Positions 7,952-26,124 of a stretch of DNA of 64,000 nt are shown piece after piece. The notes below the pieces were generated by a model, which saw only the letters and a list, made by a program, of their open reading frames with translations, did not search any database and was not told the DNA's origin. Within the stretch, counting starts at the first letter, position 1. Each line of letters starts with the position of its first letter. The translations under genes and the position numbers were made by a program. Source of the DNA: a virus; IMG/VR virus record IMGVR_UViG_3300027974_000020, positions 105,198-169,197 of that record; one strand, given 5' to 3'.

Positions 7952-7952
7952 T

Positions 7953-8745: not shown

Positions 8746-8800
8746 GGTCTGATTGGATCGACCTTAACTGTCCATGAACCAACCGTTAACCAAGAGGTTG
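8746..8800 (+). ncRNA. candidate pseudoknot leader RNA, copy C
   Basis: GGTC-TGATTGGATC-GACC, TTAACT, GTCCA (pairs with loop TGGAT), TGAACC, then a CAACC/GGTTG hairpin. Confidence 0.6.
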
Positions 8801-8843
8801 TAATTCACATGGTTATTTAATCACAAACAAAAGGAGAAGGATA

Positions 8844-9362: not shown

Positions 9363-9400
9363 GTAGCAGCGGTGAGCCTGGAGTTAGGTTTCAGGCTAAG

Positions 9401-9458
9401 GAAATTAGGGTCCTTCGGGGCCCTTTTTTCTTTATGACTAGGAATAAGGTTCCAAGTC
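9401..9458 (+). promoter_or_regulatory. terminator + CTAG element, copy 11
   Basis: GGGTCCTTCGGGGCCC hairpin, T-tract, then GACTAGGAA-TAAGG-TTCCAAGTC. Confidence 0.8.
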
Positions 9459-9459
9459 C

Positions 9460-9513
9460 GTCTGATTGGATCGACGTAAAATGTCCATGACCCCTGGTTA
9501 TTGGTTACCCAGG
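9460..9513 (+). ncRNA. candidate pseudoknot leader RNA, copy D
   Basis: GTC-TGATTGGATC-GAC, GTAAAAT, GTCCA, TGACCC, then a CCTGG/CCAGG hairpin. Confidence 0.6.
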
Positions 9514-9576
9514 ACAACTACGTAACCAGAGAGACACTATCTCTCTATAATAAAAAGTGTAATAAGGAGGAATGTT

Positions 9577-9966
9577 ATCAAAGAGCAAATCAACAAAATC
9601 AACCAGGTCACTGATGGTGACAAGGTCAAGTGCGAGCCGTGCTTTGGCACAGGTAAGTACATGAGCAAAACCGTCATCGATGGAACATGTTTCCGTTGCA
9701 AAGGCACTGGTTCAGAAAAAGCAATGTCAATCAAGCAATACAATTTCATCAAGGAATTGTTCATGGCATTGGTGAAAATGAACATCATTGTGAAAGAGAA
9801 CAATGAATGGCATGAAATGGTTAACACCATGAACCAACACAAGGATGGAATTACATTGCGGTCATCCAAGTGGGCATCAGACAAGATTGAGGAATACAAG
9901 GCTCGCAAGAACCGTGTCCTCAAACCTAAGAGGCCAGTGTATTCAGTTACCCACTGTGGAATTTGA
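9577..9966 (+). CDS. DnaJ-type CxxCxGxG zinc-finger protein with putative ATC start
   Basis: TAAGGAGG SD, 6 nt, then ATC in frame with ORF 9661. The extension supplies the first CEPCFGTG, which pairs with CFRCKGTG. Confidence 0.7.
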   Translation: MKEQINKINQVTDGDKVKCEPCFGTGKYMSKTVIDGTCFRCKGTGSEKAMSIKQYNFIKELFMALVKMNIIVKENNEWHEMVNTMNQHKDGITLRSSKWASDKIEEYKARKNRVLKPKRPVYSVTHCGI

Positions 9967-10070
9967 GCAGTGGGATGAACCACAGTGGGTAACTGAAGAA
10001 TGGAAAGCTGGAGAAGATGCAGAGGCTGACATATACTAGCACCGCCAGGTGTATAGGTAGTCATCAAGTC

Positions 10071-10131
10071 AAAGAAGAGGGGGTCCTTCGGGGCCCTCTT
10101 TTCTTTTATGCCTAGGACACAGGTCTCAGGC
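10071..10131 (+). promoter_or_regulatory. terminator + CTAG element, copy 12
   Basis: GGGTCCTTCGGGGCCC hairpin, T-tract, then GCCTAGGAC-ACAG-GTCTCAGGC. Confidence 0.8.
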
Positions 10132-10157
10132 TAACACTCTCTAGGAGGGGAGTAATC

Positions 10158-11609: not shown

Positions 11610-11628
11610 AGTTTTACCTCAGGTAAAT

Positions 11629-11703
11629 AAGAGAGAAGGGTCCTTCGGGACTCTTTTCTTTTATGCCTAGTTCACAGGTCTCAGATCACTGAGGTCGCTA
11701 GGC
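11629..11703 (+). promoter_or_regulatory. terminator + CTAG element, copy 13 (upstream of RNA polymerase gene)
   Basis: cTTCGg hairpin, T-tract, then GCCTAG-TTCACA-GG. The partner CTAGGC is at 11698-11703, beyond an inserted hairpin. Confidence 0.8.
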
Positions 11704-11739
11704 AAGTAATACAAACCAATAAACCCTTAAGGAGGGAAT

Positions 11740-14331
11740 ATGGAAGACCAACCGGTCAAACCGCCCGATGCAGCGGCCAATGCATCAACAAAGGAGAAGA
11801 AGATGCCAAAAGGTATCATCACTTTCCTGAAGGGGCGCTTTCGCGTTCTGACAAATAATCCAACTCCGAAAGAGGAGCAGGCATACAATTTGTCTCAGGA
11901 AACCAATAAGCCAGTCCCGTTTGGACGGATCAAGACTGTTACTGGATACAATTATGTCCAGGACGTCTACGCTGTTCAGACTGGTGACTTCACCTACTCC
12001 TTGTTGGAGAACAAACTTACTAAGCGGGGAATTAAGTTCCGTTTAGGAGTCGTCTCTAACAAGGATCTATCAGAGCTCGTAATCAAACACGAACTGTTCA
12101 GTCTTAATGACATGATCAGTAAGTGCAGGTTCGCATGGGCTAACGCATCATACACCTTCTTCCTGGAGGTTCAAGACAGTAAAGAAGCATCAAGCTTTGA
12201 TCTGTCTGATCTTGGGTTGGAGGTCTATGACTTCAAGAAGACCAGCAAACGTTTGCAGGAAGTGACTCGTATCACTCAAATGCATTCGTCTGGTCCGATT
12301 GGCAAACTTGATTATCGCATGTTGGAAGATCTTCCTGGTGAAGAACTTGCATATGATGGTCCAGTATTTGTCAGCGACTCATTTGCAGTGCGTTCTTGCT
12401 TTAGTATGACTGATGGTCCTGCTAAGAACAAGCACATTGCAATGATCAATCGCGGTAAGATCGGTCCAATGATTGGTCGTATTCTGATGGATCAAGGTGA
12501 AGTTAAGGGCCTTGTCCACGTTGTTCCACGACAACAGCTAGGTGCGGATGTGGTTTTCCACAAATCTGCTCTGAAGCGAGAGTTAAAGACTGACGATGGA
12601 CGTTGGCACTATACTGCCTTCAAACACAAGAACCTCCACACTGCTATGTGGGATATGCAAACTATGTTCAATAACCATACCTGGTTAATGACCAAAGAGC
12701 AATTCACACTGGACATGGAGTCTGTTATCACTGACTTTAACAAGTCTGTTGAGAATGGACAGCTTCCTGACTGGATTATCCACCAGGAAACTGACGGGCA
12801 CAAGGATGACTCAGCTCCACAAGTAGAGCATGTGACATCTGGCTGGAAGAAGAGTTACATCCGCTGGCAACAAGCTGGTTTGGATGTAACTGCATCTAGC
12901 AACCTCGTCTACATGGCTTTCGGATCATTGCTGAACCAAATGCGTTCTGCTTTGAAACGAAACACGTGGTGGGTTCCCATCTCTAATGCCTTTACGGCGA
13001 CAGTAACCACCTTCGATGCTTTGGAGGTCATGGGTAACTTTGAGCTGCCTCAGCACAAACGAGACATGGTGTTCTTTGATGAACGCTTTGGCTGTATTGT
13101 GCCGACTAAGCGGTTCATTGAGACTGCTGACCTTCATGACACGTGGGATCAGGACGGTGACCAAGCTAAGTTCATCCGCATTAAACTGTGGAGTTCTTCG
13201 CTTGTTATGAGCCTTGATGGATACAACCATCCGGAACTCAGGGAAACATATGTCATTCCTGCTGATTTGGTAGTGCCAAGCACTCCTGAAGAGGCAATTG
13301 ATATGTGTGTCGTTATCCGTTCACCAAACGGTCCTGGCGGTTACTCTATCGAACGGTTTGATGCTGAAACGATGCCATGGCTTCGTGTAGCGGAAGATCG
13401 TGTACAGGTAATTGATCTGGCCAAAGCACCAGCTGCAATGAGCACTTTGCTCGTTACAACTGAATGCGGTCAGATTAATAGCTCCACTACCTACAGCAAG
13501 GAATTGTTCAACCGGGATCATGCTCTTAATATGATCTTGGCACAGATGAATAACCCTGGTGTTGGTAGGTACGCTAATCTCATTATGGTTTGGGCTGCAA
13601 CATTTGGTCCAAGCTATCCTGATAAGTTGCCTGCAATTGGTAACGATGTCATTGACTGTGTTCAACAGACCGCAGACCTTGGTTCATTTGTTCAATTGCA
13701 AAGTGACTACTCAGAAATGGCTGAAAGCATTGCTCAGGCGATCATTGACAGCGGTTGTGGTATTGACCGTTATGTTCTTGAGACCCGGTTCCCTGCACTC
13801 AGCGATGAGACACGCCAAATGCTGGTAGATATTGCAGTAGACGGTCAGTTTACTGAGATGTACAACGCATACAATCAAACTATTACAAAGGTGCAAAATA
13901 TCGCATCCAAGGGTAGCTTTGATCTGCGTTTGACATCTGACACTCGTAACAAAGTGTACAATGCAATTCCAGCTATGAGGGAGTCAACCTCTGTTTGGTG
14001 CCGTGGCATCTGGTCAAAGTATGAACGTGAACTCTCAAGGGTTGACGGTAAGTACTCTGAACTGTCCAAGAATACCAATCGCTTTGTAAAGATGTCTGCT
14101 GTTGCACAACGCACAGAAGAAATCTCTACCATCATTGGTGCACTGTTGGATGAAGTCAAGGCAACATCACATCCTGAGCTCTATGCTCTTGCTATCTACC
14201 GTTGGATCATTGATCCGGAACTGACTCGCAGTAAGTATGGCGTGTCTGACCGTATCATCTTCCAGAACGGAATAGACGGACAAGAGACCATCATGGATCT
14301 CATTATCACAGCAATCAAGGACCTGAAGTAA
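11740..14331 (+). CDS. single-subunit two-barrel RNA polymerase (YonO / RNAi-RdRP-like), paralog 1
   Basis: DGPVFVS, GRILMDQGEVKGLV..SALK (DPBB-A lysines), DQDGD (13147-13161), IRSP, GVGRYAN and IDC motifs. Confidence 0.8.
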   Translation: MEDQPVKPPDAAANASTKEKKMPKGIITFLKGRFRVLTNNPTPKEEQAYNLSQETNKPVPFGRIKTVTGYNYVQDVYAVQTGDFTYSLLENKLTKRGIKFRLGVVSNKDLSELVIKHELFSLNDMISKCRFAWANASYTFFLEVQDSKEASSFDLSDLGLEVYDFKKTSKRLQEVTRITQMHSSGPIGKLDYRMLEDLPGEELAYDGPVFVSDSFAVRSCFSMTDGPAKNKHIAMINRGKIGPMIGRILMDQGEVKGLVHVVPRQQLGADVVFHKSALKRELKTDDGRWHYTAFKHKNLHTAMWDMQTMFNNHTWLMTKEQFTLDMESVITDFNKSVENGQLPDWIIHQETDGHKDDSAPQVEHVTSGWKKSYIRWQQAGLDVTASSNLVYMAFGSLLNQMRSALKRNTWWVPISNAFTATVTTFDALEVMGNFELPQHKRDMVFFDERFGCIVPTKRFIETADLHDTWDQDGDQAKFIRIKLWSSSLVMSLDGYNHPELRETYVIPADLVVPSTPEEAIDMCVVIRSPNGPGGYSIERFDAETMPWLRVAEDRVQVIDLAKAPAAMSTLLVTTECGQINSSTTYSKELFNRDHALNMILAQMNNPGVGRYANLIMVWAATFGPSYPDKLPAIGNDVIDCVQQTADLGSFVQLQSDYSEMAESIAQAIIDSGCGIDRYVLETRFPALSDETRQMLVDIAVDGQFTEMYNAYNQTITKVQNIASKGSFDLRLTSDTRNKVYNAIPAMRESTSVWCRGIWSKYERELSRVDGKYSELSKNTNRFVKMSAVAQRTEEISTIIGALLDEVKATSHPELYALAIYRWIIDPELTRSKYGVSDRIIFQNGIDGQETIMDLIITAIKDLK

Positions 14332-14349
14332 TAGGTTCTTCCGAGTAAA

Positions 14350-14452
14350 GAGAGAGAGCCCCTGGGGAAACCTAGGGGTTCTTTCTTTATTCCTAGATCC
14401 TAGGTCTTTAGTTATTATATTAATATTTTTTTTTCCTAGATCTTAGGACCCT
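14350..14452 (+). promoter_or_regulatory. terminator followed by two variant CTAG-N6-GG elements (copies 14 and 15)
   Basis: GCCCCTGGG-GAAA-CCTAGGGGTT hairpin, then TTCCTAG-ATCCTA-GG and TTCCTAG-ATCTTA-GG. Confidence 0.65.
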
Positions 14453-14675
14453 ATTCTAAAGTCACTCGGCGATTGCTTAGCCCTCAGACTCAAAATAGGC
14501 TGAGATTCTAAATCCTCTTTGGCTCATTTCCCTTGACGGGCTTGGGCTAAAAGGGGGGATTTTCTCTCTTCTTTGCTCAATGTCCCTAACGGGTCTGGGC
14601 CAAAAGGGGGGGATTATTCCCTATTATAAAGGCATTCTTGGGAGCCTACAATTCCAAGAGAACAAGGAGACGATT

Positions 14676-15188
14676 GTGACACTCACAGTCTACATTAATA
14701 CCCCTCCTGCTGTTCGGGAGAACAAGACCACAGGTGAGACTTTCTTCTCATCTTTGGTTGGCGTTTCTGCCGAACTCAGGGCAACACTTCCACAGGTGGA
14801 CGTTCTCAACTGGAACATCCAAAAGTGGGAAAACCTCACGCTTGACGCTGAAGTTGCTGCACTCATTGGCTACACCGCTGATGAGCCAGTTGACGAAGTG
14901 GTCATTCCAAAGCACGAAGCCATTGACGCCTTCTTCCAATCTGCTGTTGCAGGTGGACTGAAGTTGGCAATCGTTTGTGACTCCGTCCAGCACGGGAAAG
15001 TCACTGAAGGTGTTAACCCTAACACTAACAAGAACGAGCGCCGTATGGCTATCTGGCCTGAAGGTGAGTTCAGCATTGAACTGTTCAAGCCGACTGCAAA
15101 GGCTAAAGTCAGTGCTGCTACGGCAGACCGCTTGCGTAACAACAAGCAAGAAACAGCAGTAACTTCGGACGGAGATGCACCGTTCTGA
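14676..15188 (+). CDS. hypothetical protein with SSB-like acidic C-terminal tail
   Basis: AAGGAG SD before GTG 14676; ends in SDGDAPF. Confidence 0.7.
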   Translation: MTLTVYINTPPAVRENKTTGETFFSSLVGVSAELRATLPQVDVLNWNIQKWENLTLDAEVAALIGYTADEPVDEVVIPKHEAIDAFFQSAVAGGLKLAIVCDSVQHGKVTEGVNPNTNKNERRMAIWPEGEFSIELFKPTAKAKVSAATADRLRNNKQETAVTSDGDAPF

Positions 15189-15213
15189 GTTGACTGCTCA
15201 TTCCCCAAGGTGT

Positions 15214-15263
15214 GGAGTGTGGGACATTTGCTTCGGCGAGTGTCCTACACTCCCCCTTTTTTT
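15214..15263 (+). terminator. intrinsic terminator
   Basis: GGAGTGTGGGACA...cTTCGg...TGTCCTACACTCC, followed by a T-run. Confidence 0.75.
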
Positions 15264-15490
15264 ACTTAGTTCCTCGGCTACTCCTACGGAGTAGGCCTCA
15301 GAACTAATTCGCTGGCTGACGCCAGCTCAGACTCTTGCTATCCCCTCCTTGGATGTGCTAGCTCAGTAGTATAATAATATTGTATTACTGGGCTAGACAT
15401 TCTAAAAAAAAATTCAACTAGTACAATAGTCACCAAAACTCAACTACAAAAGGGGGGTTTTCTAAATATTCCTATCTTGAAAGGATTGTT

Positions 15491-15709
15491 ATGACATCAG
15501 AAGATACCGTATGGCACATCTCAAGTGCAATCATTGCTGCAATGTTTCCACCTAAATCATGGTGTGAAGAAGCAACCAACGATGAACTTGACAAAGCATT
15601 GTTCAGGGTCCTCAACAGTGAAGGGGAATCAAAAATCTCTCACATCAAAGGACTGAACAAGTTGGATGAAGTCCTTGCTACTCTTGCTAAAGAAGCAGGA
15701 ATAAAATAA
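15491..15709 (+). CDS. hypothetical protein
   Basis: AAGGA SD; stop overlaps the next start. Confidence 0.6.
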   Translation: MTSEDTVWHISSAIIAAMFPPKSWCEEATNDELDKALFRVLNSEGESKISHIKGLNKLDEVLATLAKEAGIK

Positions 15710-15930
15710 TGTCAACAATAAGAATTAACACAAACACGTGTTTGCATTGCAAGCAAGAAGGTTTCATCGAAATGTCAGAAGATGAATACAATCGAGGCAT
15801 CAATGCATTCAACGAAGGAGAATTAATTCAATGTGCATTCCCAGGTCTATCTGTAGATCAAAGGGAACAAGTCATTTCTGGAACTCATCCAGAGTGTTGG
15901 AATGAACTGTTCGCAGAAAAAGAACATTAG
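15709..15930 (+). CDS. small zinc-binding phage protein
   Basis: CLHC...IQCAFP...RE..ISGTHPECW. Confidence 0.7.
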   Translation: MSTIRINTNTCLHCKQEGFIEMSEDEYNRGINAFNEGELIQCAFPGLSVDQREQVISGTHPECWNELFAEKEH

Positions 15931-16210
15931 ATCTACGGGCATTTGTTTGTAAAAGCTGACCCTTTTTGGGTTGCGCAGACATTTGCGCCGTATACAGGTA
16001 ATCAACACCTGAAAACCCCTCGGTAGTCCTATCGAGATGAAGTTGATTATGGATAGACGAGCTATAGCGTCTTTAAACATTTAGGATAGCCTAGGCCACT
16101 GGTACAAGGGCGACACAAGAACACTGTCTGGTATATGCAGAAGAAGCGTTGTATCAATATACTTTTAAAAAATAAGACTAGTACCCTACGTAAAAGGGGG
16201 GAAGGGCAAT

Positions 16211-16312
16211 ATGAAAACAATAACATTAATATTAACATCATTCATCGCCGGCGGACTTACCATGATCGTATGGGTTCGCAGGATGTTCAAAACAATGGAA
16301 GGACAATTATGA
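16211..16312 (+). CDS. 33-aa hydrophobic peptide
   Basis: MKTITLILTSFIAGGLTMIVW...; ATGA overlap with the next gene. Confidence 0.5.
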   Translation: MKTITLILTSFIAGGLTMIVWVRRMFKTMEGQL

Positions 16313-16494
16313 GTTACAAAAAGTTATTTTGGGGCTATGTAACACTAAACGTTATTTGGGGATTTCTTTATGGAATCTACCTTGGTGGCAAACAAGTCCA
16401 AGCAAGCGACAGGATCAGTGAGTTCAAGTTCAGCGATAAAATGCAAGAAATGGTCAAGTACTACGAAAACAAGAATAAGGAACAAGTAGCATGA
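16309..16494 (+). CDS. small membrane protein
   Basis: GAAGGA SD; one TM; ATGA overlaps on both sides. Confidence 0.6.
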   Translation: MSYKKLFWGYVTLNVIWGFLYGIYLGGKQVQASDRISEFKFSDKMQEMVKYYENKNKEQVA

Positions 16495-16664
16495 TGATCC
16501 AAGTCATAGATGGTGAACTACGTACAGGCGTATGTGCAATATGTCACAAAAGAAAACCAACCATAACTGTATCAATAAACACTAAAGGAAGTCGGATACT
16601 CACCACTGAAGATTGGTGCTTAGAAGACTTTAATAGTCTAAAAGAAAGAATATCACTAAAATGA
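16491..16664 (+). CDS. 57-aa hypothetical protein (CxxC)
   Basis: AAGGA SD; ATGA coupled on both sides. Confidence 0.5.
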   Translation: MMIQVIDGELRTGVCAICHKRKPTITVSINTKGSRILTTEDWCLEDFNSLKERISLK

Positions 16665-16762
16665 AGAAACTCACAGCAATCACTACAGCAATAGCATTTG
16701 TTCTTGCCGGCTTAGCCGTATATCTCAAGAAAATGAGACTATTCAAAAAGGATAAATCATGA
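16661..16762 (+). CDS. 33-aa hydrophobic peptide
   Basis: MKKLTAITTAIAFVLAGLAVY...; ATGA coupled. Confidence 0.5.
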   Translation: MKKLTAITTAIAFVLAGLAVYLKKMRLFKKDKS

Positions 16763-16998
16763 ACTCAATACTTATTATTTCACTTGTATTGTCTCATCTA
16801 CTAGCCATAGCCATAAGCGCAAAATGGACATCTAAACTCATCTACACTGACATTAAAACTAATTACGATGTTATTGAGTTTGTGCGGGTGATAGAAGAAG
16901 TTCAATCTAGAAGAAACCACCCCACAGCTAGGCCTCAGTTCTATGATTGGGAAACGGAAGAAAAGTTCGAAAACATCATCGATCAATTCGACAAATAA
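16759..16998 (+). CDS. small membrane-anchored protein
   Basis: AAGGA SD; N-terminal TM. Confidence 0.6.
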   Translation: MNSILIISLVLSHLLAIAISAKWTSKLIYTDIKTNYDVIEFVRVIEEVQSRRNHPTARPQFYDWETEEKFENIIDQFDK

Positions 16999-17110
16999 TC
17001 ATTCTAAACCACCTCCTATAAAAGGGGGGCAATCATAGAAAGGGGTGATGAATGTTCGATTGGTTCTTTGATTTAATAGCTGATCTAATAGATGCAATAT
17101 TCGGAAACTA

Positions 17111-17338
17111 ATGAAAGGAAAAAGTATGCGTAAGCTTGGAGAACTGCTTGGTAAAACCACAGCAGGAAGTAAGGAACTGGTTAAAAGTTCAATTACTGGT
17201 TCTAAGAAAGTGGCTTCTGTCACTAAAACAGCAGTAGTCGATGCAAAATCTGACTTTGTTGCTGGCTTCAAAGCTACTTCTGGTACTCCTGTTGTTCCAA
17301 CAGTAGATACAATAGAAGTTATTGAAGTAACGGAGTAA
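17111..17338 (+). CDS. small Lys/Ala/Thr-rich protein
   Basis: 75-aa ORF; the likely start is ATG 17126, after AAGGA. Confidence 0.55.
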   Translation: MKGKSMRKLGELLGKTTAGSKELVKSSITGSKKVASVTKTAVVDAKSDFVAGFKATSGTPVVPTVDTIEVIEVTE

Positions 17339-17428
17339 ACCCAAAAGGGGGGATTGCGTATCTAGTGCAATCTCTTTATATAATATCACATAACAACATA
17401 TCCCATAATATCACAGAAAGATAATATC

Positions 17429-18472
17429 ATGTCAACACTAAGCAATATGTTTGGTATCAATAGCGATGATCTCGCTCTTGTTACCGAAAATCCCGATGCG
17501 TTCAAAAGCCAAAGCAATACCACGCTACTCCGTAAGGATAAGCGGGTAAAGGCAAAAGGCTCGATCAACAACATCGAAATCCCAACCTACGTCACACTTG
17601 AGAGTGCCTTCTGGACTCGTCTCACTGTGCGTGACCACTACATCAACCGTGCAGGCGCAGAAGCTCGTACCAGCCAAGTATTTGGTGGTGTCTTCAAGCC
17701 AGTCAAAATGAAGGTTGAAGTTGAAATCAACGGTAAAACTATGCTCTTGCAAGAGCTCATCCGCGACCTCATCGCTGAAACCTCTGCAGGCAAGTCAGCC
17801 GACGAAATCAATCGTATCATTGAAGATACAAATCTTCTTCGTGGCTTTGCCGATGGTATGCCGTTGATGTTCCAACAAATGGGTGCCAGCGAAAACGGCT
17901 TCCAGCATGCAATTGAAATCTTCCGTTCCGCAGGAGCAGTAGATGACCTTGCTTCATTGAAGGGTAACAGCCGATTCCACACCTGCTATGACATGAAACA
18001 GAAACAGGGTCTTGAAGTTGTAGCCTTTGAACTTGGTTCAGCAGACCGCACACAATCAAAAACAGGACAGGGCTTTACTGACATCATTGATGCAGTAATC
18101 AGCAATCTTGTTCGTGTCATCGGTCACAAAACAACTGCTGCTATTCTTCGTAAAGAAATTGAAGAAAAAGTTGCAAGTCTTTCGCAAGGTGACATCAAGG
18201 CTAAGCAGACTAAGATTGATTCTGAATTGGCAATGAGCCGTCAGTATCCAGTCATTTGGTCTGGTGCTGCGCGTCAGAAAGACACAACAGAAACTGGCGA
18301 TATGGTTACCCGTGATAAGTACAATGCTGTCAATGCACCTTGTGGTCGTTGGACTGTACTTCTCAATGGTCAAACAGAAGATCTGGATGTATGGTCAAAT
18401 TCGACCAAGCAACCAATCAATGCTGTAACCACCGCAACTGCAGTTGTAGATACAACGGTTAAACCGTTCTAA
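17429..18472 (+). CDS. hypothetical protein, 347 aa
   Basis: Long ORF followed by a long hairpin; no recognisable motif. Confidence 0.8.
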   Translation: MSTLSNMFGINSDDLALVTENPDAFKSQSNTTLLRKDKRVKAKGSINNIEIPTYVTLESAFWTRLTVRDHYINRAGAEARTSQVFGGVFKPVKMKVEVEINGKTMLLQELIRDLIAETSAGKSADEINRIIEDTNLLRGFADGMPLMFQQMGASENGFQHAIEIFRSAGAVDDLASLKGNSRFHTCYDMKQKQGLEVVAFELGSADRTQSKTGQGFTDIIDAVISNLVRVIGHKTTAAILRKEIEEKVASLSQGDIKAKQTKIDSELAMSRQYPVIWSGAARQKDTTETGDMVTRDKYNAVNAPCGRWTVLLNGQTEDLDVWSNSTKQPINAVTTATAVVDTTVKPF

Positions 18473-18581
18473 CTATAACCAACATTTAAGTTCTGCTCTG
18501 GAATATGTTAACCTCATTGCATATTCCAGAGTAGACTTAATTAAAAAAATAACACTAGACCTTTAATGAAAGGAAGGCTCT

Positions 18582-18863
18582 ATGTATATATTAGCATTAG
18601 CAATCCTTCTTGGACTCGCTGTGGCAACCGTCACAGAAATTGTCTATGAAGTTGCACCAGCTATAAGTAAGATTAAGTACCTCGGCAACCCAGATCTTCT
18701 GTTCCCACTGCTTGCAATCCTCGCAGTATGGGCAACTGATACATCTATCCTAGGTGCCTATGGTCTTAACGGTGCAGAATGGTTTGACGTTGTAGGTTCA
18801 GGTTTGGCTGTCGCCGCTGCAACCAAAGCAACTGATGCCGTAGTTAACTATCTTAACAAATAG
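18582..18863 (+). CDS. small multi-TM protein (holin-like)
   Basis: AAGGAAGG SD; three hydrophobic segments. Confidence 0.6.
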   Translation: MYILALAILLGLAVATVTEIVYEVAPAISKIKYLGNPDLLFPLLAILAVWATDTSILGAYGLNGAEWFDVVGSGLAVAAATKATDAVVNYLNK

Positions 18864-18965
18864 TAAACTATAAACAATGATGTTAGCGTGGGTGGTAGAA
18901 CTCTATCTCTATCACCCACACTAATCATAATATTATTTTTTTATTCTAACTCAAAAGGAAATAAG

Positions 18966-19229
18966 ATGAGCACACCAACTGAAGTAGTCGAAATCCAACG
19001 TTGGATGAAAGACGCAGCATGTAAGGGGAACACTGAAGGTGACTGGTTCCCAGAAGCCCCAGGCAATAACTCTGGAGTAAAAATAGCTTTAGCAATATGT
19101 AAAGATTGTCTAGTCAAACAAGAATGCTTTGACTATGCAATAACAAGACCAGAACTATCAGGTATCTGGGGTGGAGTAACATCACGCAAGCGTGGATCCT
19201 TACGAGCCGAAAGGAAAAAAGGTGAGTGA
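18966..19229 (+). CDS. whiB: WhiB-family transcription factor
   Basis: W...AAC...WFP...ICKDC..KQEC...GIWGG: four Cys plus the GIWGG turn. Confidence 0.92.
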   Translation: MSTPTEVVEIQRWMKDAACKGNTEGDWFPEAPGNNSGVKIALAICKDCLVKQECFDYAITRPELSGIWGGVTSRKRGSLRAERKKGE

Positions 19230-19599
19230 ATACCCAACAGATTATCCTCGCAATGGTTTCCATATCTGTCATGGGTGTGGGTCTATGGCTCCGCATCATA
19301 GTCAAGAAAGCCTTCCAGATAATGGATGGACATTCGATCTCAACCTATTCGGATACTATGGCGGTTTTACAGATCCCATTGGAGAAGAACCACAAAGAAT
19401 AAGGTTATGCCACGACTGTGTGCTTAAGTTTCTAAACACATTTCCTCTATTAGGAGTACTCATAGGATCAGGCTGTCATAGTATGTCTGGCCCCAATGAA
19501 AAACCATGCTGCAAATATGCATGGAAACTAGACTCCATAGAGAATAATCATATCACGTGGATAGCCACTGAAGATGGTGAATCTTGGACTGTGTTGTAA
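19222..19599 (+). CDS. Cys-rich hypothetical protein
   Basis: CHGC...GYYGGFTD...LCHDC; GTG start after AAGGA. Confidence 0.65.
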   Translation: MSEYPTDYPRNGFHICHGCGSMAPHHSQESLPDNGWTFDLNLFGYYGGFTDPIGEEPQRIRLCHDCVLKFLNTFPLLGVLIGSGCHSMSGPNEKPCCKYAWKLDSIENNHITWIATEDGESWTVL

Positions 19600-19883
19600 T
19601 GCTTCTTCCCTATAGGCTTATCTATATATGTCTATAGGGAATAAGTACCCTTTGCCCTTGTTTTCGGGGGGGACCCGCGAAGCGGGGGGGTCCCCGATAT
19701 TAAAATGACAACCCTTGTGGTTGTCTTAAAAAATAGAGGTAGTCTTTAGACTACCGAATAAAAAATAAGCCTAGGCTTTAGTCCGCCGGCTTAAAAAACT
19801 TTTTCTACTACGTGTTGTCATAGGCATGTTATACCTGCTATGATATACATATCAAGTAGTACACGACGATAGGAGTAATACAG

Positions 19884-20105
19884 ATGCCTCGGCAACATCA
19901 ATCAAAAGCAATCAAACGGGTCTTTTCAGAACTGACAAGACTCGGCTTTGTAGTAGAGCAAAAAAGATCAGGGTCGTATAGGATTGTACCCCCTTCAACA
20001 ATCCAAGGACCCGTATACACAACTCACGGTACAGAGTCGGCATTGCACCCAATGCGCCGTGACTTTAAAAAATATTATAATATAAACTTAAACTCTATCT
20101 CCTAG
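19884..20105 (+). CDS. HicA-like dsRBD-fold small protein
   Basis: L...GF.VEQKRSGSY.I...V pattern; the canonical HicA His is absent; AGGAG SD. Confidence 0.55.
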   Translation: MPRQHQSKAIKRVFSELTRLGFVVEQKRSGSYRIVPPSTIQGPVYTTHGTESALHPMRRDFKKYYNINLNSIS

Positions 20106-20409
20106 AGATGCGGTTTACTCCTTGTAGGGTGTAGGGTAATATCAGAGCAATCTGAGTTACCTTACACCTTAATAATAAGATTTAACTATAAGAATAAGAA
20201 TAAGAATTAACTTAAAATAAGAATAAATTGTTATCAATATAAAGAATTGGACCCCTCTCAGGGGTGGACCCATTTATAACATATATAAAGTATACAAAGT
20301 GTACATATATGTTCCCCCACATGTCCCCATTTATCCCCATTCTTCTATCGTTATGCACATAACTCAAAACAATGCTTAATTACTCCTAGAAAGAATATGA
20401 GGATTACTC

Positions 20410-20856
20410 ATGAATAACCCTAAGATTGTAGTAGAACAGTTCCTATCAGATCTAATCAATGATGTTTACCCTACCCTTAACAAAGATATGTCTTATCTCT
20501 ATGGAATAGAGAATAAGCAATGTTATGTTTCGGGGGCGGCTCAACTGTTAACTACAAAAAAAGACATATACCAAATACTAGAAGATGATGCGACAGAAGC
20601 TTATACAGCTATGTATGATATTCTCGCATTCTTCATTTGGGGATGGGCTGCACCCCTCCAATCAGATGAAGACCTCAACGTTCCACCTAGTCAACATCCA
20701 GACAAAGTAAGAATATTCTTATCTATGTTCTCCTATAGTGATGGAACTATAATGTCAGCGTTAAAACATTGTGAAGATCCAAATATGCAGTTGCAATTCC
20801 AATATGGAGAAACGCAAGGTCCATTATATGAAACCCTATCTCAACTATATAACTAA
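20410..20856 (+). CDS. hypothetical protein
   Basis: GAGG SD; GWAAP...PSQHPDKVR motif. Confidence 0.7.
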   Translation: MNNPKIVVEQFLSDLINDVYPTLNKDMSYLYGIENKQCYVSGAAQLLTTKKDIYQILEDDATEAYTAMYDILAFFIWGWAAPLQSDEDLNVPPSQHPDKVRIFLSMFSYSDGTIMSALKHCEDPNMQLQFQYGETQGPLYETLSQLYN

Positions 20857-20899
20857 TCTCTAAAACGTCAAAAAATTACAAAAAATTTTGCGGCGGATC

Positions 20900-20972
<73 letters not shown>

Positions 20973-21019
20973 CGAGGCATGGTAATCTAAAGCAATGGCT
21001 TATTACCAAGCCACCAGCA

Positions 21020-21156
21020 GTGTAATCCCCGGGCATGAATTGCCCTCGTGTGACAGTAACCAATCAAAGATTGAGTCTCTACCTCCAGTTAAGAATCTCT
21101 TTGTGTCCACCCAAATTACCCCATAATTGGGTGCCGGGGTTTACACCCCTTTTTTT
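21020..21156 (+). ncRNA. candidate structured ncRNA
   Basis: Closing stem GTGTAA-T-CCCCGG / CCGGGG-T-TTACAC enclosing internal hairpins, followed by a T-run. Confidence 0.4.
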
Positions 21157-21191
21157 AGAAAGGCAATATCTAGTATATTAGAAGGAATGAA

Positions 21192-21671
21192 ATGACTATC
21201 TTAGAACAAGAAAGTAAACTTAAGTCGTTAGGCACAAGAGTGCCTTTGACGGATGATCCTAAAATTAGGGGCATCTTAGCAGTCCATTACAGCCTTTGGC
21301 AGGGCCGCGAATCTATTGAGCATAATGGCAAACAACTGACGGTTTACCAGCCGGCACATAAAGGATATTCATCCGTAGTTATCCCTTCAGAATCGGGTTA
21401 TAATTTTCTGTGGATTACACAGAATATGGAACCCTCTAAAGATAGCTACGGTTCAATGGCTATCCGTAGATCTCAACAGCTTGGGGACAACAAAATGATC
21501 ACCTGGATTGTAGACAATACTGGTGGTAAATTTGTTTATGTAGGTAGCATACATACTACCCATTACTTCAACGGAGACCAAGATGTTATAATCGAAAGAT
21601 ACGTAGAAGGACAGACTGAAGTAGTCTACACAAACATGCCGTTCTATTATCAAGCTAAATCCAAATATTAA
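21192..21671 (+). CDS. hypothetical protein
   Basis: GAAGGA SD; 159 aa. Confidence 0.7.
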   Translation: MTILEQESKLKSLGTRVPLTDDPKIRGILAVHYSLWQGRESIEHNGKQLTVYQPAHKGYSSVVIPSESGYNFLWITQNMEPSKDSYGSMAIRRSQQLGDNKMITWIVDNTGGKFVYVGSIHTTHYFNGDQDVIIERYVEGQTEVVYTNMPFYYQAKSKY

Positions 21672-21764
21672 AATTGTTATACCCCTAAATTTATATAGGT
21701 TTGCATGCCAACCCTATATAATAATATATGAGTTGTAACAATAAAAAAAACATTATCAACAAAC

Positions 21765-21793
21765 TTGCTTAATTTTCATTTTTATACTATAAT
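21765..21793 (+). promoter_or_regulatory. sigma70/SigA-type promoter
   Basis: TTGCTT-17 nt-TATAAT upstream of ORF 21844. Confidence 0.65.
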
Positions 21794-21843
21794 ATTTATA
21801 TACCCTTATACACCTAAATAACCCACAGAAAACGGAGATTGAA

Positions 21844-22059
21844 ATGGCTAAGCCATCAAAAACCCCACTTATTAATCAATTCATTAATTCCAATACAGAC
21901 AAAATTTATTCCACAAAAGAAATGTGTGTACAAATTGGCGTTAGCCTTCCAACACTTCTTAGTTATATTAAGAGCAACACAGAGCGTTTTGAACTTGTTC
22001 AATACGGTGTTTACAAGATCGTTAAGAGTGGTCAACAACCTATTGCAGTTGAGATTTAA
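21844..22059 (+). CDS. small winged-HTH DNA-binding protein
   Basis: STKEMCVQIGVSLPTLLSYI HTH followed by a GVY wing. Confidence 0.7.
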   Translation: MAKPSKTPLINQFINSNTDKIYSTKEMCVQIGVSLPTLLSYIKSNTERFELVQYGVYKIVKSGQQPIAVEI

Positions 22060-22233
22060 TAGTTAGTTTATTTAAAAATAAAGTTACTATTATTGCATCA
22101 TCTATAAACATAGACGGTGCGCAGTCAAGTCTGCTTTAAAACAAGATCTTTTAAGTTAAAAGATTAAGTAGACCCAACCAAGGAGTATTGGTATAAATAC
22201 TTACAATAACAAGAAATGTGATATAATAAATAC

Positions 22234-22406
22234 AATGCCCGTAACATGCGGGCAGGGAAATAATCCCTAACGTAACAGAGTAATACTGTGAAGTCGGAGA
22301 TGGCTAACCTGCCAACTGTGACGGGCATTTCGTATCTGTCCGCACATCTTCGGTTTCGCAACCTGCGCCGTACTAATGGTGTTTCGCAACACCAGACAAA
22401 GACGAA
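22234..22406 (+). ncRNA. candidate structured 5' leader of the transglycosylase gene
   Basis: TGnTATAAT at 22219-22227. Stem AATGCCCGT/ACGGGCATT starts at the predicted TSS. A second domain carries two GTT-TCGC-AAC hairpins and ends at the SD. Confidence 0.45.
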
Positions 22407-22422
22407 AAGGAGCGAACACGAA

Positions 22423-23013
22423 ATGCAAGTAAAATACAAAAAAGCAATGCTAGTATCTATTGTTGCAGGAATATTCCTGTCTTCTGGTATAGCCAATTCT
22501 AGTGCTACTAGGATTGAACAACCAGTACAGGAACCTCCCAGTACCGTCAAGGTACTAACTGCACCCGATAGATTAGACAAATATAATGCAATTGATTCAA
22601 TTGTGTTTAAACATGGAGATATATCTTGGCTTCCATTATTAGCCAAAGAGGCTGGTTGGCCCCGTAAAACGTGGGACAAACTAGGCGATATTATTCTCCG
22701 TGAATCAGGTGGATGCCCCAATCGAATTGGTGGTTCCATAGTTGACAAAAATTGTAATGTAGTTGGGCACTCAGGTGCTGCAAATAAATCCGATTCAGGA
22801 TTGCTACAAATCAATGGAGTCAATTGGGATCCCAAAAGAGATGGCAGACAACTACTTTGTGCAGATTATAGAATCTGTACTCAAGAACAACTCCTGGATC
22901 CGGTTACCAACTTAGTTGCAGGCTATGTCCTGTATCAAAAATCTGGTTGGGATCCATGGGACCCATGTGCATGGGGGCCTAGTTTTGCCCATAGGTGTAA
23001 AACTGGCAAATAA
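22423..23013 (+). CDS. secreted lytic transglycosylase (SLT-like)
   Basis: Signal peptide; RESGG catalytic Glu, DSGLLQIN, LLDPVTN and W.PW motifs. Confidence 0.85.
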   Translation: MQVKYKKAMLVSIVAGIFLSSGIANSSATRIEQPVQEPPSTVKVLTAPDRLDKYNAIDSIVFKHGDISWLPLLAKEAGWPRKTWDKLGDIILRESGGCPNRIGGSIVDKNCNVVGHSGAANKSDSGLLQINGVNWDPKRDGRQLLCADYRICTQEQLLDPVTNLVAGYVLYQKSGWDPWDPCAWGPSFAHRCKTGK

Positions 23014-23034
23014 TTACAAATAAATATTATGAAT

Positions 23035-23064
23035 AAAAGGGGGGGCCTTGTGCCCCTCCTTTTT
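23035..23064 (+). terminator. intrinsic terminator
   Basis: AAAAGGGGGGGC-CTTGT-GCCCCTCCTTTTT. Confidence 0.7.
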
Positions 23065-23111: not shown

Positions 23112-23534
23112 ATGCTACTAACTATGATGTTAATCTTAGCTATCACTTCAACTCTAGTAGAGTTGTTGATTGCTTCTAAAGTTAAATGGTGGAGACAGAA
23201 GTCTCACGACAGCAAACTGTTCAACATGTTGAACTCGCTATTCCTATCATTCTTGATAGGTTTAGCATTCAGTGCCTCTGGCTTAATTGCCATGGGTGCT
23301 GGCGTAATATCAACCGTGTTGTCCGTTCCCGGCTATCAATTCCTGTATTGGAATTATGATGGCCCAATGGCACAAAAACATGGTGGTAATATGATGTTAC
23401 ATTTGAAATCTAAATGGTTTCAAACAATTAAGGATTTCTTTACACTTGTGTATAAAATCCTGAGAATAATCACATTCCCAATTTGGGGAACTAGATGGGC
23501 AGTAACTAAACTAAAGACAATCAAAACTAAATAA
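23112..23534 (+). CDS. hypothetical membrane protein
   Basis: Multiple hydrophobic segments. Confidence 0.65.
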   Translation: MLLTMMLILAITSTLVELLIASKVKWWRQKSHDSKLFNMLNSLFLSFLIGLAFSASGLIAMGAGVISTVLSVPGYQFLYWNYDGPMAQKHGGNMMLHLKSKWFQTIKDFFTLVYKILRIITFPIWGTRWAVTKLKTIKTK

Positions 23535-23562
23535 AAAAATCGAGTAGACCGTAGGAGGTAGC

Positions 23563-26124
23563 GTGTCACTAATCACATACAGACCAATTGTTCGGCTTCG
23601 CTCAGAAGCAAATGGGCCACTTCGCAGCATGAATGATTACCAGTTCGGATTTTACGATACTGGTTTTCTTCGTCAAGCTATGAAGTCTATCCCTAACGCA
23701 ACAAATTATCGAATGGCTACTATGCCCATTCCACAGAATCCACACGAAGCTCGGATTGCTGAACAGATTATTAAGCACCCCGATGTATGCTATGCCGTAG
23801 TTGATAAAAATAAGATTGCAATTGTTATCATAGAGAACAATCCAGGATGGTTGTCAATCTTTAAAGAAATGGGCTATGAAGTCTTTGCCGGCGATAAGAC
23901 TGGCAAACGACTCAAGACCTTTCATCGTCCAGCATTGTTGAACGCTCACTTTGAAAAAGATGAGATTAAAGTTCACGTTGCTGATTCAACAGACTATTGC
24001 TCATATGACTTTGAGAATGGAGAAGTTGCAAAACAATTTTGCGACCCATCCATTACTAAACGCCTTCTTGATGGCGGTTTTGTAATTTCTCGCAAGTTCG
24101 TTAAAAGAGCAATAGAAAATATTCCAATGTATCATCCAGAAGATACAACTGACAACAAAGAATATTATTATGATTGGCGTATTCGTAAGAAGCTTGTAAA
24201 GAATCTTATGAAAGCTCCAATCCTTAATGTTCGCATTGTCTTTGAAGGAGGCTTCCTCAAGGGCAATGCAATCGTTGTTGACGAAGAACAAATGCCAGAT
24301 GATATTGATATTATTACCAGTAGTGAAAATATTAAATCTGAAATAAAATATCACAATGGTTTTCAATTTCTGGCCGAACCTCAAGGTTCCCATGAACGAG
24401 TCATCACTGACGATCAAACTGTAATCAATTTGGATAATCTTTTCATCACATCCGATATGGATTTCTGGTTAACAGAAGAATATGAGAAGATGTTCAATGA
24501 TGCTATTAATTCTAAACTATTGACTAATTGGCAAGAAATTTACAAACGTCAGTTTCGTAATGTTGCATCAGCAGAAGATGAAGAAGCTAACTCTCGCATG
24601 TCCTATGTGGGATATCGTTGGGTGGCAAGCGGTATGAAAATTACCGATTCTCCATGGCTCTTTGAGACATTAGCAACAAGTCATGCAAAGCCATTTCAAA
24701 AGCGTATTCCAATTCCTTGCACAGTTTATGAGCAAGTAATTCCAGAATCTTTAGCTCGTGTGGCTGGCTATGACATTGATGTTGAGACAGAAACTATTCA
24801 GCGTATTAATGAACTTGGAGTTCATGTTGTCAATGATCTTGACTGGCTTGAGATGTATGAATCTCATGGCGGTCACGACGAGGACGACTACTTCAAATGC
24901 TTTTATCGCACAATGGTTGGTGGACAACAATTCGATGGCGAACGTGTCGTCATCATTTGTCGTTCTCCTAATGGCTATGGTGAGTATTCAATCTTTAGAT
25001 ATGTAGAAGGACAATGGTCTCCAACATGGCATAAAGCAGATGGTACTCCAATTCAGTTTCCTGAAGTTTCTGGACGTGGATGGCCAACTCGTTTGAGTGA
25101 AGCTATCTACCAGAATGAAGTTAAATATGACAAACTTCCATCTGAGTATCAAAATAAAGTAAAACCAAATGGTCATTATACTCCAGACGACGTTATCCAC
25201 GACATGCGTGTAGCTATGGGTGGTGGTAATGTCGGTGGATATGTAAACGCCGTTATGGCTCATTCCCTTGTTTTACACACTCATCGTCCAAACCAACTCT
25301 GCTCCATGGAGAAAGCAATCGACAAATGTATCAATCCAGATTATATCGAAGATGCTCTTGCTATCGATGCCGAAGCTAGAGCTATCGTTAGAGAAATCAT
25401 TGATTCTAAACAACCAATCGATTCTGAATTCTGGAGCCGCAGAGGCTTTTCACGTTATCTAAAAGATGGTGAAACAGTAGATCTTTTCGAAGGAAAGATG
25501 AGTCACATGAACACATTGTGTTCAGAAAAATATCGTGACTACTGTTCTCGAATTCGTGAATGGTCACAAGCAAATGCTGGCCCACCACAGATAGTTCATG
25601 ATCTTGGTAAGCGTTTGTATTTTCACGCACTGCCTATTGTAAGAAACTTTAGAAGTACTATTTATACAGTAAATACTTCTGAAGCTACTCAAGCAACAGG
25701 TACAATTGTTCGCAATTCTTGGGAAGAATTGTATTCTGATATTGTAAATATTGTTAATTCTTTTGATAGAGAAGAAGACAAGCATGATTTTATTATTGCT
25801 ATGTATTCTGTATCTTTAAAAGTACCAACTTCTAGTGGTAAAATAACAGATCAAATTGTTATGAATCGATTTGTATATCCTTATCTAGAAGCAGCTTTAC
25901 AATTTTATGGCATTGCAAATACCGTTGTATTTTCTCCTACCGAAGATGGAGACGTTGATATATTCAACGTTGAAAACAAAGAATGGAGATATCCTAATCC
26001 AAATGGAGATATTGTAGTTTACAATGATCCAATTGAATTTCAAAATGCTCATCGAATAGATAGCACAGTTGTTTTTACAACTCAAGAACCACCAGTCAGA
26101 CAATCTAATATATCCAAATATTAA
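23563..26124 (+). CDS. single-subunit two-barrel RNA polymerase-like protein, paralog 2
   Basis: DGGFVIS, VRIVFEGGFLKGN..SENIK, GGHDEDDYF (24868-24894), CRSPNG, NVGGYVN and AIDK motifs, colinear with paralog 1; AGGAGG SD with GTG start. Confidence 0.78.
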   Translation: MSLITYRPIVRLRSEANGPLRSMNDYQFGFYDTGFLRQAMKSIPNATNYRMATMPIPQNPHEARIAEQIIKHPDVCYAVVDKNKIAIVIIENNPGWLSIFKEMGYEVFAGDKTGKRLKTFHRPALLNAHFEKDEIKVHVADSTDYCSYDFENGEVAKQFCDPSITKRLLDGGFVISRKFVKRAIENIPMYHPEDTTDNKEYYYDWRIRKKLVKNLMKAPILNVRIVFEGGFLKGNAIVVDEEQMPDDIDIITSSENIKSEIKYHNGFQFLAEPQGSHERVITDDQTVINLDNLFITSDMDFWLTEEYEKMFNDAINSKLLTNWQEIYKRQFRNVASAEDEEANSRMSYVGYRWVASGMKITDSPWLFETLATSHAKPFQKRIPIPCTVYEQVIPESLARVAGYDIDVETETIQRINELGVHVVNDLDWLEMYESHGGHDEDDYFKCFYRTMVGGQQFDGERVVIICRSPNGYGEYSIFRYVEGQWSPTWHKADGTPIQFPEVSGRGWPTRLSEAIYQNEVKYDKLPSEYQNKVKPNGHYTPDDVIHDMRVAMGGGNVGGYVNAVMAHSLVLHTHRPNQLCSMEKAIDKCINPDYIEDALAIDAEARAIVREIIDSKQPIDSEFWSRRGFSRYLKDGETVDLFEGKMSHMNTLCSEKYRDYCSRIREWSQANAGPPQIVHDLGKRLYFHALPIVRNFRSTIYTVNTSEATQATGTIVRNSWEELYSDIVNIVNSFDREEDKHDFIIAMYSVSLKVPTSSGKITDQIVMNRFVYPYLEAALQFYGIANTVVFSPTEDGDVDIFNVENKEWRYPNPNGDIVVYNDPIEFQNAHRIDSTVVFTTQEPPVRQSNISKY

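Follow-up and report, generated by a model that had tools for sequence, protein, structure and literature searches.

Background

The metal-binding motif of two-barrel polymerases has been described as DxDxD or DFDGD (PMC10770324). Phage enzymes of the single-chain two-barrel type include the non-virion gp64 and the tape-measure-fused virion polymerase gp96 of P23-45, and gp62 of P74-26 (PDB 8F72, 8F5M, 8H2M). The loop of gp96 reads DFDGD and gp64 is described with a DxDxD motif, the signature through which the P23-45 virion polymerase was found; these distant paralogs act at successive stages in one phage, and the host RNAP is used for the late genes (PMC10770324). The virion RNAP gp66 of the crAss-like phage phi14:2 (PDB 6VR4) is active with a DFDID loop, of which all three aspartates are required (10.1101/2020.03.07.982082), and since position 4 of this loop differs from that of DFDGD, the glycine is not essential. 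YonO of SPbeta and the YonO-like proteins of 0305phi8-36 and c-st are single-peptide DNA-dependent RNAPs of roughly 100 kDa that belong to the RdRP-like clade (PMC5467207, PMC7824862). Jumbo phages of the phiKZ and AR9 type, finally, carry two polymerase sets (PMC7824862), which are paralogous and serve early and middle/late transcription independently of the host RNAP (PMC7598289, PMC4666361).

The DNA analysed here comes from an uncultured lake phage of about 200 kb that encodes three related RNA-polymerase-like enzymes. Its sequence record has 169 kb and is only 80% complete; all positions refer to the stretch of 64,000 nucleotides that was analysed, called the window below. The record contains two mid-size paralogs only, A and B, both encoded in the window (Table 1), and a third paralog, C, which lies outside it.

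Results and discussion

Homology and predicted fold of paralogs A and B

A was initially annotated as a second polymerase paralog that resembles B in length and in the order of its motifs, and this is borne out by alignment and by structure prediction. In the alignments A and B are distant but clear homologues, far beyond chance: BLASTP aligns them over 639 columns with 18% identity (E 7e-10), and profile-profile comparison with hhalign over 687 colinear columns (probability 99.9%, E 3.6e-35). Foldseek searches with the AF2 model of A (pLDDT 85.7, pTM 0.82) returned QDE-1 first (E 2.5e-10, probability 1.0), followed by RDR2 and gp64, and the model of B (pLDDT 87.1) gave the same outcome with RDR2/QDE-1 at probability 1.0 and gp66 as a weak match (E 0.19). 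VIA-align gave the A model Z scores of 11.8 (564 residues aligned), 10.1 (581) and 9.4 (386), with the cellular matches at Z 10-11.8 over 545-593 residues and the P23-45 and P74-26 enzymes at Z 9.3-9.4. As modelled, A and B share the two-DPBB fold of the single-chain QDE-1/RDR/gp64 clade, and since both resemble QDE-1, the objection that they might lack structural homology to one another falls away.

Like QDE-1 and RDR2 (PDB 2J7N, 7Y7T, 7W82, 7EU1), A is a single-chain two-barrel protein, colinear with them over about 550-590 residues, with a short helix before and a strand after its acidic loop. The match to QDE-1 is one at the level of the fold, and the correspondence of D439, D441 and D442 to the QDE-1 aspartates is putative. 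A differs from these cellular enzymes in that it has no detectable sequence similarity to them, carries a DxDD instead of a DxDGD loop, is phage-borne and likely uses a DNA template. Searches of the PDB sequences with single sequences, with the profiles of the families and with one built from the catalytic barrel only found no polymerase, and thus no link to a solved structure at the level of sequence. Pfam scans of A and B gave no relevant match at E up to 1, the RdRP family (PF05183) included, nor did PHROG give any; 50,697 GenBank phage records contained no match to gene A (megablast) or to A and B (tblastn); and an RSPNG-type pattern run over 185,579 species genomes met no relative, which speaks only for that narrow pattern. 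The ESM Atlas held nothing informative for A (by shape) or C (by features). YonO, which is near A in size and is compared here by its description only, is described with a canonical aspartate triad; it does not appear among those BFVD matches that carry a name.

The best structural matches of A being cellular RNA-dependent RNA polymerases, A might itself copy RNA, as QDE-1 and RDR2 do, and yield dsRNA or antisense RNA with a function in regulation or counter-defence; QDE-1 indeed has both activities (PMC9508822). We regard this as very unlikely, because the characterised phage members of the clade, gp64, gp96, YonO and crAss gp66, use DNA templates (PMC10770324, PMC5467207, 10.1101/2020.03.07.982082), and because transcription accounts better for three paralogs, promoter-like motifs and the finding of no other phage RNA polymerase. 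Most probably, A is a DNA-dependent RNA polymerase.

The DxDD loop and its distribution

Residues 435-445 of A (HGGHDEDDYFK) correspond to residues 466-477 of B (HDTWDQDGDQAK). That the loop of A is one residue shorter, as had been noted, is confirmed by hhalign and MAFFT, which both open a one-residue gap opposite the glycine when HGGHDEDD of A meets HDTWDQDGD of B and thereby pair D439, D441 and D442 of A with D470, D472 and D474 of B; the BLASTP alignment of the loop, unlike these two, is ungapped. B (DQDGD) thus has the DxDxD spacing (DFDGD or DbDGD) and A (D439-E-D441-D442) has not.

The shortened metal loop had been read as an alteration in A, a reading that would fall if the homologues all carried DxDGD and this copy were decaying. 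The opposite was found. DxDD is invariant in all 120 listed homologues of A. In the superfamily, which comprises about 580 clusters at 50% identity, 140 of 147 representatives have it, and so does B', the second paralog of the more distant sister phages; family C has an invariant LGGFDLDD loop. DxDGD is limited to two small lineages, to one of which B belongs. On the sequences compared, it is the textbook DxDGD of B that is rare, and DxDD is what this large, unannotated family of phage enzymes normally carries. A is a central and highly conserved member of this unnamed hGGxDxDD polymerase family: it carries the signature of the loop followed by R(S/N)PN(G/D)xG(E/G)(Y/W)S, and its profile E-value lies far below the threshold. 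For the family as such, we found neither a Pfam or PHROG entry nor a functional name or a publication. Within it, DxDD and DxDGD have replaced one another at least two times while the other core residues were kept. The family tree is unrooted, as hmmalign put only fragments of family C on the profile, and the change may be a gain or a loss of the glycine.

QDE-1 is a homodimer. By this analogy, and given that its loop departs from the canonical spacing, A could be a catalytically dead or autoinhibited partner in a heterodimer with B. The conservation of A makes such a role highly improbable. H435, G436, G437, D439, D441 and D442 are invariant across 36 A homologues, which together with the 120 listed DxDD homologues rules out decay, and the three aspartates are invariant throughout A, B and B'. 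The retention of basic residues and of the RSP motif, also remarked on initially, holds for K112, K115, R116, R122, R224, K233, R467, P469 and N470, which are invariant in the 47 sequences of the A and B families over which the core residues were scored. Candidate basic residues of the other barrel (R224, K233 and K258, also K112, K115 and R116), assigned from sequence rather than from their placement in the model, are invariant or nearly so. As all other core residues are invariant, A is not decaying and not likely to be a non-catalytic partner, and the earlier suggestion of an autoinhibited or non-catalytic form finds no support. DxDD is, moreover, the norm even where both paralogs of a phage carry it, and genes A and B lie behind different motif classes. 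Finally, in sister phages the B slot is variable, holding B, B' or a KLGGADLDDE type (G009), while A stays 50-88% identical, which argues against an obligate, co-evolving A/B pair.

Table 1. Positions in the window of genes A and B, their motifs and the associated sequence elements
Feature	Position	Strand	Basis and remarks
Class I array: terminator and TTTATG(A/C)CTAG-N6-GG promoter-like motifs	2823..14396	+	motif search
Gene of paralog B (P0002, 863 aa)	11740..14331	+	ORF, AF2, Foldseek; canonical DxDGD loop
D470-Q-D472-G-D474 codons of paralog B	13147..13161	+	translation and alignment
Class II: seven AAAAGGGGGG motifs	14549..23045	+	motif search; occupy the stretch from gene B to gene A
G/C hairpin and T-tract (terminator-like), then TTAATTCAAA	23035..23075	+	sequence; 45 nt before the 140-aa ORF preceding A
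140-aa ORF directly upstream of A	23112..23534	+	ORF list
Shine-Dalgarno AGGAGG (23553-23558) and GTG start codon (23563-23565)	23553..23565	+	sequence read; Shine-Dalgarno six bases before GTG
Gene of paralog A (P0001, 853 aa)	23563..26124	+	ORF and translation; single-chain two-barrel polymerase homologue, DxDD loop
Basic motif K112-x2-K115-R116-x5-R122	23896..23928	+	invariant in A, B and B' sequences
R224-x8-K233-G234 motif (R..G..KG type), first barrel	24232..24264	+	invariant in A, B and B'; aligns with family C counterpart
Catalytic-loop codons H435-G-G-H-D439-E-D441-D442 (HGGHDEDD)	24865..24888	+	conservation; local pLDDT 90-94
R467-S-P469-N470 (RSPN) motif after the metal loop	24961..24972	+	R467, P469, N470 and G473 invariant in 47 sequences

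Genomic context and the third paralog

Gene A is part of the non-structural + strand arm, with an SF2 helicase gene 1.2 kb downstream. Its homologues start at the same position, and the conserved C-terminal coding sequence of the 140-aa ORF is present upstream of A in relatives; this ORF and gene A are probably co-transcribed. Related phages likewise keep, ahead of gene A, the arrangement of terminator, T-tract and TAATTCAAA or ATACAAA. Genome-wide, TAATTCAAA is not significantly enriched, and TTAATTCAAA, considered as a third promoter class in a de novo k-mer search, is not enriched either (4 copies versus 0.85 expected, with a maximum of 4 in simulations). Class I motifs occur in 12 strict copies on the + strand (0.65 expected), one of them 80 nt ahead of gene B and another just after it, and class II motifs in 7 copies on the + strand (0.02 expected); TTACTATAAA has 7 copies on the late strand versus about 1 expected. 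RNA contigs from four lake RNA libraries map to parts of both gene A and gene B; they leave most of the class I array uncovered, and such contig gaps are not evidence of silence.

C is far more divergent, a giant protein that is split in this genome. It is encoded in the structural arm, which also holds the portal, terminase and tail-fibre genes, and is next to a protein of 3504 aa for which PHROG gave an endolysin-like match; Pfam gave no match for family C and the neighbours of C. Its RQP(T/S)G motif aligns with the RSPN motif of A. C is present in 15 of 16 related genomes, and two mid-size paralogs are found in all nine related genomes that are at least 96% complete; among the three paralogs, A is conserved best. 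The view that two such paralogs in one phage are unusual does not stand, given gp96 and gp64 of P23-45, the two sets of phiKZ- and AR9-type phages and the three homologues of the present clade. The likeness to P23-45 extends to a large virion-associated form that adjoins tail/ejection genes, here putatively C, whereas the present phage differs in having three paralogs and a DxDD loop that is one residue shorter. The phiKZ and AR9 enzymes differ in being homologues, in split form, of beta and beta-prime from the cellular clade, and no beta-prime domain was detected in our record. A search for T7-type RNAP (PF00940) was uninformative, its control having matched in no genome.

Could A be the polymerase that enters the cell with the DNA? 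It would then be packaged in the virion, injected and start infection on the class I motifs, and an early-made B would take over, mirroring phiKZ, where the non-virion polymerase genes are early and the virion ones later. B, not A, does sit behind a class I motif in the early-looking array, and A is the most conserved paralog. We nevertheless think this improbable, since A is encoded in the non-structural arm beside a helicase gene, whereas it is C that lies among giant virion-type proteins of the structural arm and is kept in nearly all relatives. A has neither the setting of a structural/ejection module nor the large multidomain build of virion-packaged RNAPs, and it lacks the extra domains of the known injected polymerases crAss gp66 and P23-45 gp96; gp66, in comparison, is a virion-packaged protein of 2180 aa with five-residue spacing in its loop.

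The helicase gene downstream of A also bears on a role in replication, in which A or another paralog would act much like a primase, as an RNA polymerase that cooperates with a DNA helicase. Several distant subfamilies of the family carry N-terminal PIF1-type helicase fusions, and G000 and five complete relatives have a DnaB-like helicase and no Toprim_2 (PF13155) or Prim-Pol (PF09250), so that some family members could serve replication rather than transcription; PolD is a two-barrel enzyme that does so (PMC4996933). For A itself we consider this unlikely. It has no helicase fusion, the absence of a primase covers these two families only, the strand-specific classes of promoter-like motifs call for phage-specific transcription, and the nearest characterised enzymes (gp64, gp96, YonO and crAss gp66) are transcriptases.

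Proposed role of A

Most likely, A is an active RNA polymerase of the phage that stays outside the virion and takes part in a multi-polymerase programme. Our explanation of the whole, which we hold to be reasonably probable, is that A is an active DxDD two-barrel polymerase acting after B in a staged programme of three homologues. D439, D441 and D442 of its hGGxDxDD loop would take over from the DxDxD triad the binding of the catalytic Mg2+. C, encoded among giant virion proteins, would be the likeliest injected polymerase; the gene of B stands at the end of the early-looking cassette array, behind one of its promoter-like motifs; and that of A is preceded by its own terminator and the clade-conserved motif. 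Transcription would then be staged and largely independent of the host, with A following B on middle and/or late genes.

A bolder proposition goes beyond this, and we put it forward tentatively, as less likely than not. The DxDxD loop, treated as universal, may be replaceable by a shorter DxDD that is the working centre of a very large phage family, in which the glycine was gained or lost at least two times without other change to the active site; and this clade may complete its entire programme on three such polymerases, one injected, one early and one later, and no host RNAP, or else one of them may be a new kind of primase.

Implications

As searches for divergent RNAPs often rely on the DxDxD signature, a DxDD family of hundreds of clusters would be missed by them. 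Should DxDD be catalytic, the metal-A site would tolerate more in its geometry than is currently accepted, and the natural occurrence of DxDD (A) and DxDGD (B) in one phage makes this directly testable by insertion or deletion of a single residue. Three homologous polymerases beside distinct classes of promoter-like motifs would, in addition, be a compact model of staged, host-independent transcription.

Homology and predicted fold of the two paralogs

On sequence comparison the proteins of genes A and B (P0001 and P0002) are true yet very remote homologues, BLASTP finding 18% identity (E 7e-10) and hhalign, in a comparison of the two family profiles, lining up 687 colinear columns (probability 99.9%, E 3.6e-35). 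Both hhalign and MAFFT set a one-residue gap in the A loop (residues 435-445, HGGHDEDDYFK) against the glycine of the B loop (residues 466-477, HDTWDQDGDQAK), and D439, D441 and D442 of A pair with D470, D472 and D474 of B. This bears out the initial annotation of A as a second polymerase paralog that is one residue shorter at the catalytic loop, DxDD instead of DxDGD. In both paralogs an R-S-P-N motif comes after the acidic loop (window 24865-24972 and 13135-13330), which may have a colinear equivalent in the S-P-x-N-G segment after NADFDGD in beta-prime.

Neither protein matched a relevant Pfam family, a PHROG family or a PDB sequence. AlphaFold2 models made from the family alignments (pLDDT 85.7 and pTM 0.82 for A; 87.1 and 0.84 for B) both match, at a Foldseek probability of 1.0, QDE-1 of Neurospora and Thielavia, RDR2 of maize and Arabidopsis, and gp64/gp62, which are non-virion RNA polymerases from Thermus phages similar to P23-45. 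By VIA-align the A model gives Z 11.8 with RDR2 (564 residues), 10.1 with QDE-1 (581 residues, model 15-804 versus chain 484-1346) and 9.4 with gp62, as compared to Z < 6.5 for unrelated rows; the closest BFVD models come from uncultured Caudovirales and represent uncharacterised proteins. Because of these matches we assign A and B, as modeled, to the QDE-1/RDR/phage clade of single-chain two-barrel polymerases, in agreement with the QDE-1 type initially proposed. A could also be an RNA-dependent RNA polymerase (RdRP).

The DxDD loop is the rule in this family

Two-barrel polymerases have been described with a DxDxD triad (PMC10770324, PMC7824862). Position 4 was glycine in all enzymes studied before that of crAss, which has Ile or Val at this position and is still active (10.1101/2020.03.07.982082). 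We found no published report of DxDD in a two-barrel polymerase context, and the family carries no functional name in databases, where its members appear as 'hypothetical protein' (JGI, some members) or 'Uncharacterized protein' (BFVD/UniProt).

The initial annotation considered an altered metal loop in A as one possibility. A 90%-clustered database holds 226 homologues of A at E <= 0.001, and G(H/M)DxDD(F/Y)F is kept in 120/120 A homologues among the matches listed (52-88% identity), with H435, G436, G437, D439, D441 and D442 invariant in an alignment of 36 A homologues. DxDGD is found in 72 of 77 B-family homologues, the other five, which are the most distant, having HG(T/G)WDxDD. When 1.84 billion representatives were searched with a joint A/B/B' profile (B' being the DxDD second paralog of more distant sister phages), 580 clusters matched at E <= 0.001; among the matches listed, the representatives spanning the loop carry DxDD in 140/147 cases and DxDGD in 7/147. 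Residues K112, K115, R116, R122, D170, G171, R224, K233, G234, D249, D283, H435, D439, D441, D442, R467, P469, N470, G473, G558, D620 and R627 are invariant across A, B and B'.

Since DxDD is the family norm and the core residues are invariant, the earlier premise is reversed. By these counts the shorter loop is the standard form and the canonical-looking DxDGD of B the exception, and the conservation points to strong purifying selection on A, the opposite of a decaying copy among DxDGD homologues. The initial observation of a shorter loop and homology thus stands, together with the fold and paralogy; an altered or dead copy is not supported. That A is a dead partner of B is the least likely reading because every catalytic residue is invariant. 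A would rather be an active polymerase in which the three invariant aspartates bind the catalytic metal and the hGG glycines just before the loop may supply the flexibility otherwise given by the lost Gly. A is a typical and well-conserved representative of a family that is itself unusual, and the interest lies in the family and its loop, not in a defect of A.

Second and third paralogs in related phages

A-type genes occur at 44 IMG/VR loci, mostly on contigs of ~200 kb, and two mid-size paralogs are present in 9/9 related genomes that are >= 96% complete, the second gene being on the strand of A, 9-16 kb upstream of it. A retains 47-88% identity across relatives and the second slot is variable: it holds B (DxDGD) in the closest relatives, B' (~790 aa, HGGxD(L/E)DD) in G010, G011, G012, G014 and G016, and a 926-aa KLGGADLDDE-type protein, of a subfamily that is PIF1-fused elsewhere, in G009. 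One related genome, G007 (267,766 bp), has two A-type genes that differ from each other (845 and 850 aa), and its assembly may be chimeric or double. Two such paralogs in one phage had been regarded as unusual; P23-45, phiKZ and AR9 likewise have two paralogous polymerases each.

Giant ORFs matched weakly by the A/B/B' profile led to a third family, C (1250-2070 aa, invariant LGGFDLDD), which is present in 15/16 relatives and aligns by hhalign with the A/B profile (97.2%, E 3e-11, 303 columns) from the first barrel as far as the R(Q/S)P(T/N)G motif. C is one ORF in most relatives; G001, G003 and G009 have it split elsewhere along its length, and in our record (G000) it consists of two halves overlapping by ~29 nt in different frames. 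It is flanked here by a protein of 2161 aa and by one of 3504 aa whose PHROG match is endolysin-like, and its surroundings are giant virion-type proteins. Its location and size make C the leading candidate for an injected polymerase, comparable to gp96 of P23-45 (PMC10770324) or gp66 of crAss (10.1101/2020.03.07.982082). Alternatively, A itself could be the virion enzyme.

Genome layout and the proposed role of A

The window is the final 64 kb of a 169,197-bp record (completeness 80%, CheckV estimate), and near-identical DNA recurs in metagenomes that many studies obtained from freshwater and lakes. Nearly all window genes are on the + strand; the leftmost 100 kb of the record, its structural arm, run on the minus strand and include several giant ORFs besides the genes for portal, large terminase and tail fibre. 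A beta-prime domain was not detected in the record. RNA-library contigs that differ in their flanks accumulate at the tRNA-Arg site.

Features of the window, of the rest of the record (G000:C1) and of distant family members
Feature	Location	Strand	Remarks
Class I array	window 2823-14396 (11.6 kb)	+	terminator fused to TTTATG(A/C)CTAG-N6-GG before nearly every small gene, ~14 copies
483-aa protein	window 10158-11609	+	PcfJ-like domain (PF14284, E 2e-11); gene immediately upstream of B
Gene B, 863 aa	window 11740-14331	+	ORF
Class II motifs	window 14549-23045	+	seven AAAAGGGGGG upstream of genes, block between B and A; 7 versus 0.02 expected
Seven tRNA genes	window 20900-59954	+	Arg-tct, Leu-taa, Asn, Lys, Met, Thr, Gly
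Gene A, 853 aa	window 23563-26124	+	ORF; GTG start at usual distance after AGGAGG
JAB-domain protein	window 40202-41956	+	within 39055-44696
AAA+ ATPase	window 43095-44696	+	within 39055-44696
Family C, split	G000:C1 ~32335-36991 (locus L053:536-5192), outside window	minus	754-aa + 762-aa adjacent ORFs; LGGFDLDD
TTACTATAAA	G000:C1, e.g. 66907, 48666, 78718, 78425	minus (late arm)	seven copies versus ~1 expected
PIF1/NADAR-fused members	P0244, P0251, P0255, P0312, P0335 (loci L077-L081); P0170, P0174, P0186		

Strict class I copies number 12 on the + strand versus 0.65 expected, in a region with a G+C content of 0.41-0.46 as compared to ~0.30-0.35 elsewhere in the window; gene B closes the array, with one copy 80 nt upstream of it. 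In the terminator hairpin ahead of the A operon, the last class II copy makes up the 5' arm, and the order upstream of A is hairpin terminator, T-tract, TTAATTCAAA and a 140-aa ORF. The two motif classes are not conserved in relatives, around whose gene A the class I motif was not found; what they do conserve upstream of A is a T-rich TAATTCAAA or ATACAAA element, which shows no genome-wide enrichment. In the late arm TTACTATAAA frequently sits 55-100 nt ahead of structural genes; we regard it as a candidate late promoter. RNA-library contigs from four lake libraries of three studies fall on the 14.5-23.0 kb block and parts of the A and B genes, some starting near the first class II motif (14537, 14593) or stopping at ~23003-23013; they are compatible with expression of the A/B region and cannot rank or time it.

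What, then, would A do in the phage? The order of the genes, the classes of motif and parallels in P23-45, N4 and phiKZ suggest a C -> B -> A programme, in which A would most likely be a non-virion RNA polymerase that follows B. A could instead be a helicase-coupled, primase-like enzyme. Distant DxDD-family members, located in phage-like contigs of many small ORFs, have PIF1-type DNA helicase and/or ADP-ribose-processing NADAR domains fused N-terminally, and a DnaB-like helicase is present in G000 and the complete relatives G001, G003, G009, G011 and G014, yet Toprim_2 and Prim-Pol domains were not detected in these genomes.

History of the glycine

In an IQ-TREE phylogeny of 47 sequences, calculated with the loop columns taken out, the DxDGD sequences form a single clade (SH-aLRT 100) amid DxDD lineages. 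Once 36 wider-family representatives are added there are two separate, strongly supported DxDGD clades, the B group including P0002 and the pair P0268 and P0314, and FastTree with 125 representatives has the same outcome. Because the B group is nested in a 99%-supported clade whose other members are 15 DxDD sequences, at least two switches between DxDD and DxDGD are needed, in a direction that depends on the root of this unrooted tree; rooting with family C was unsuccessful, C being too divergent to align with the A/B/B' family. Loop length has evidently been crossed more than once without change in the other conserved residues. In this phage one paralog has the rare DxDGD form, and within the family the Gly has toggled at least two times; such toggling with the other residues kept is the strongest indirect argument we have for both loop forms being functional.
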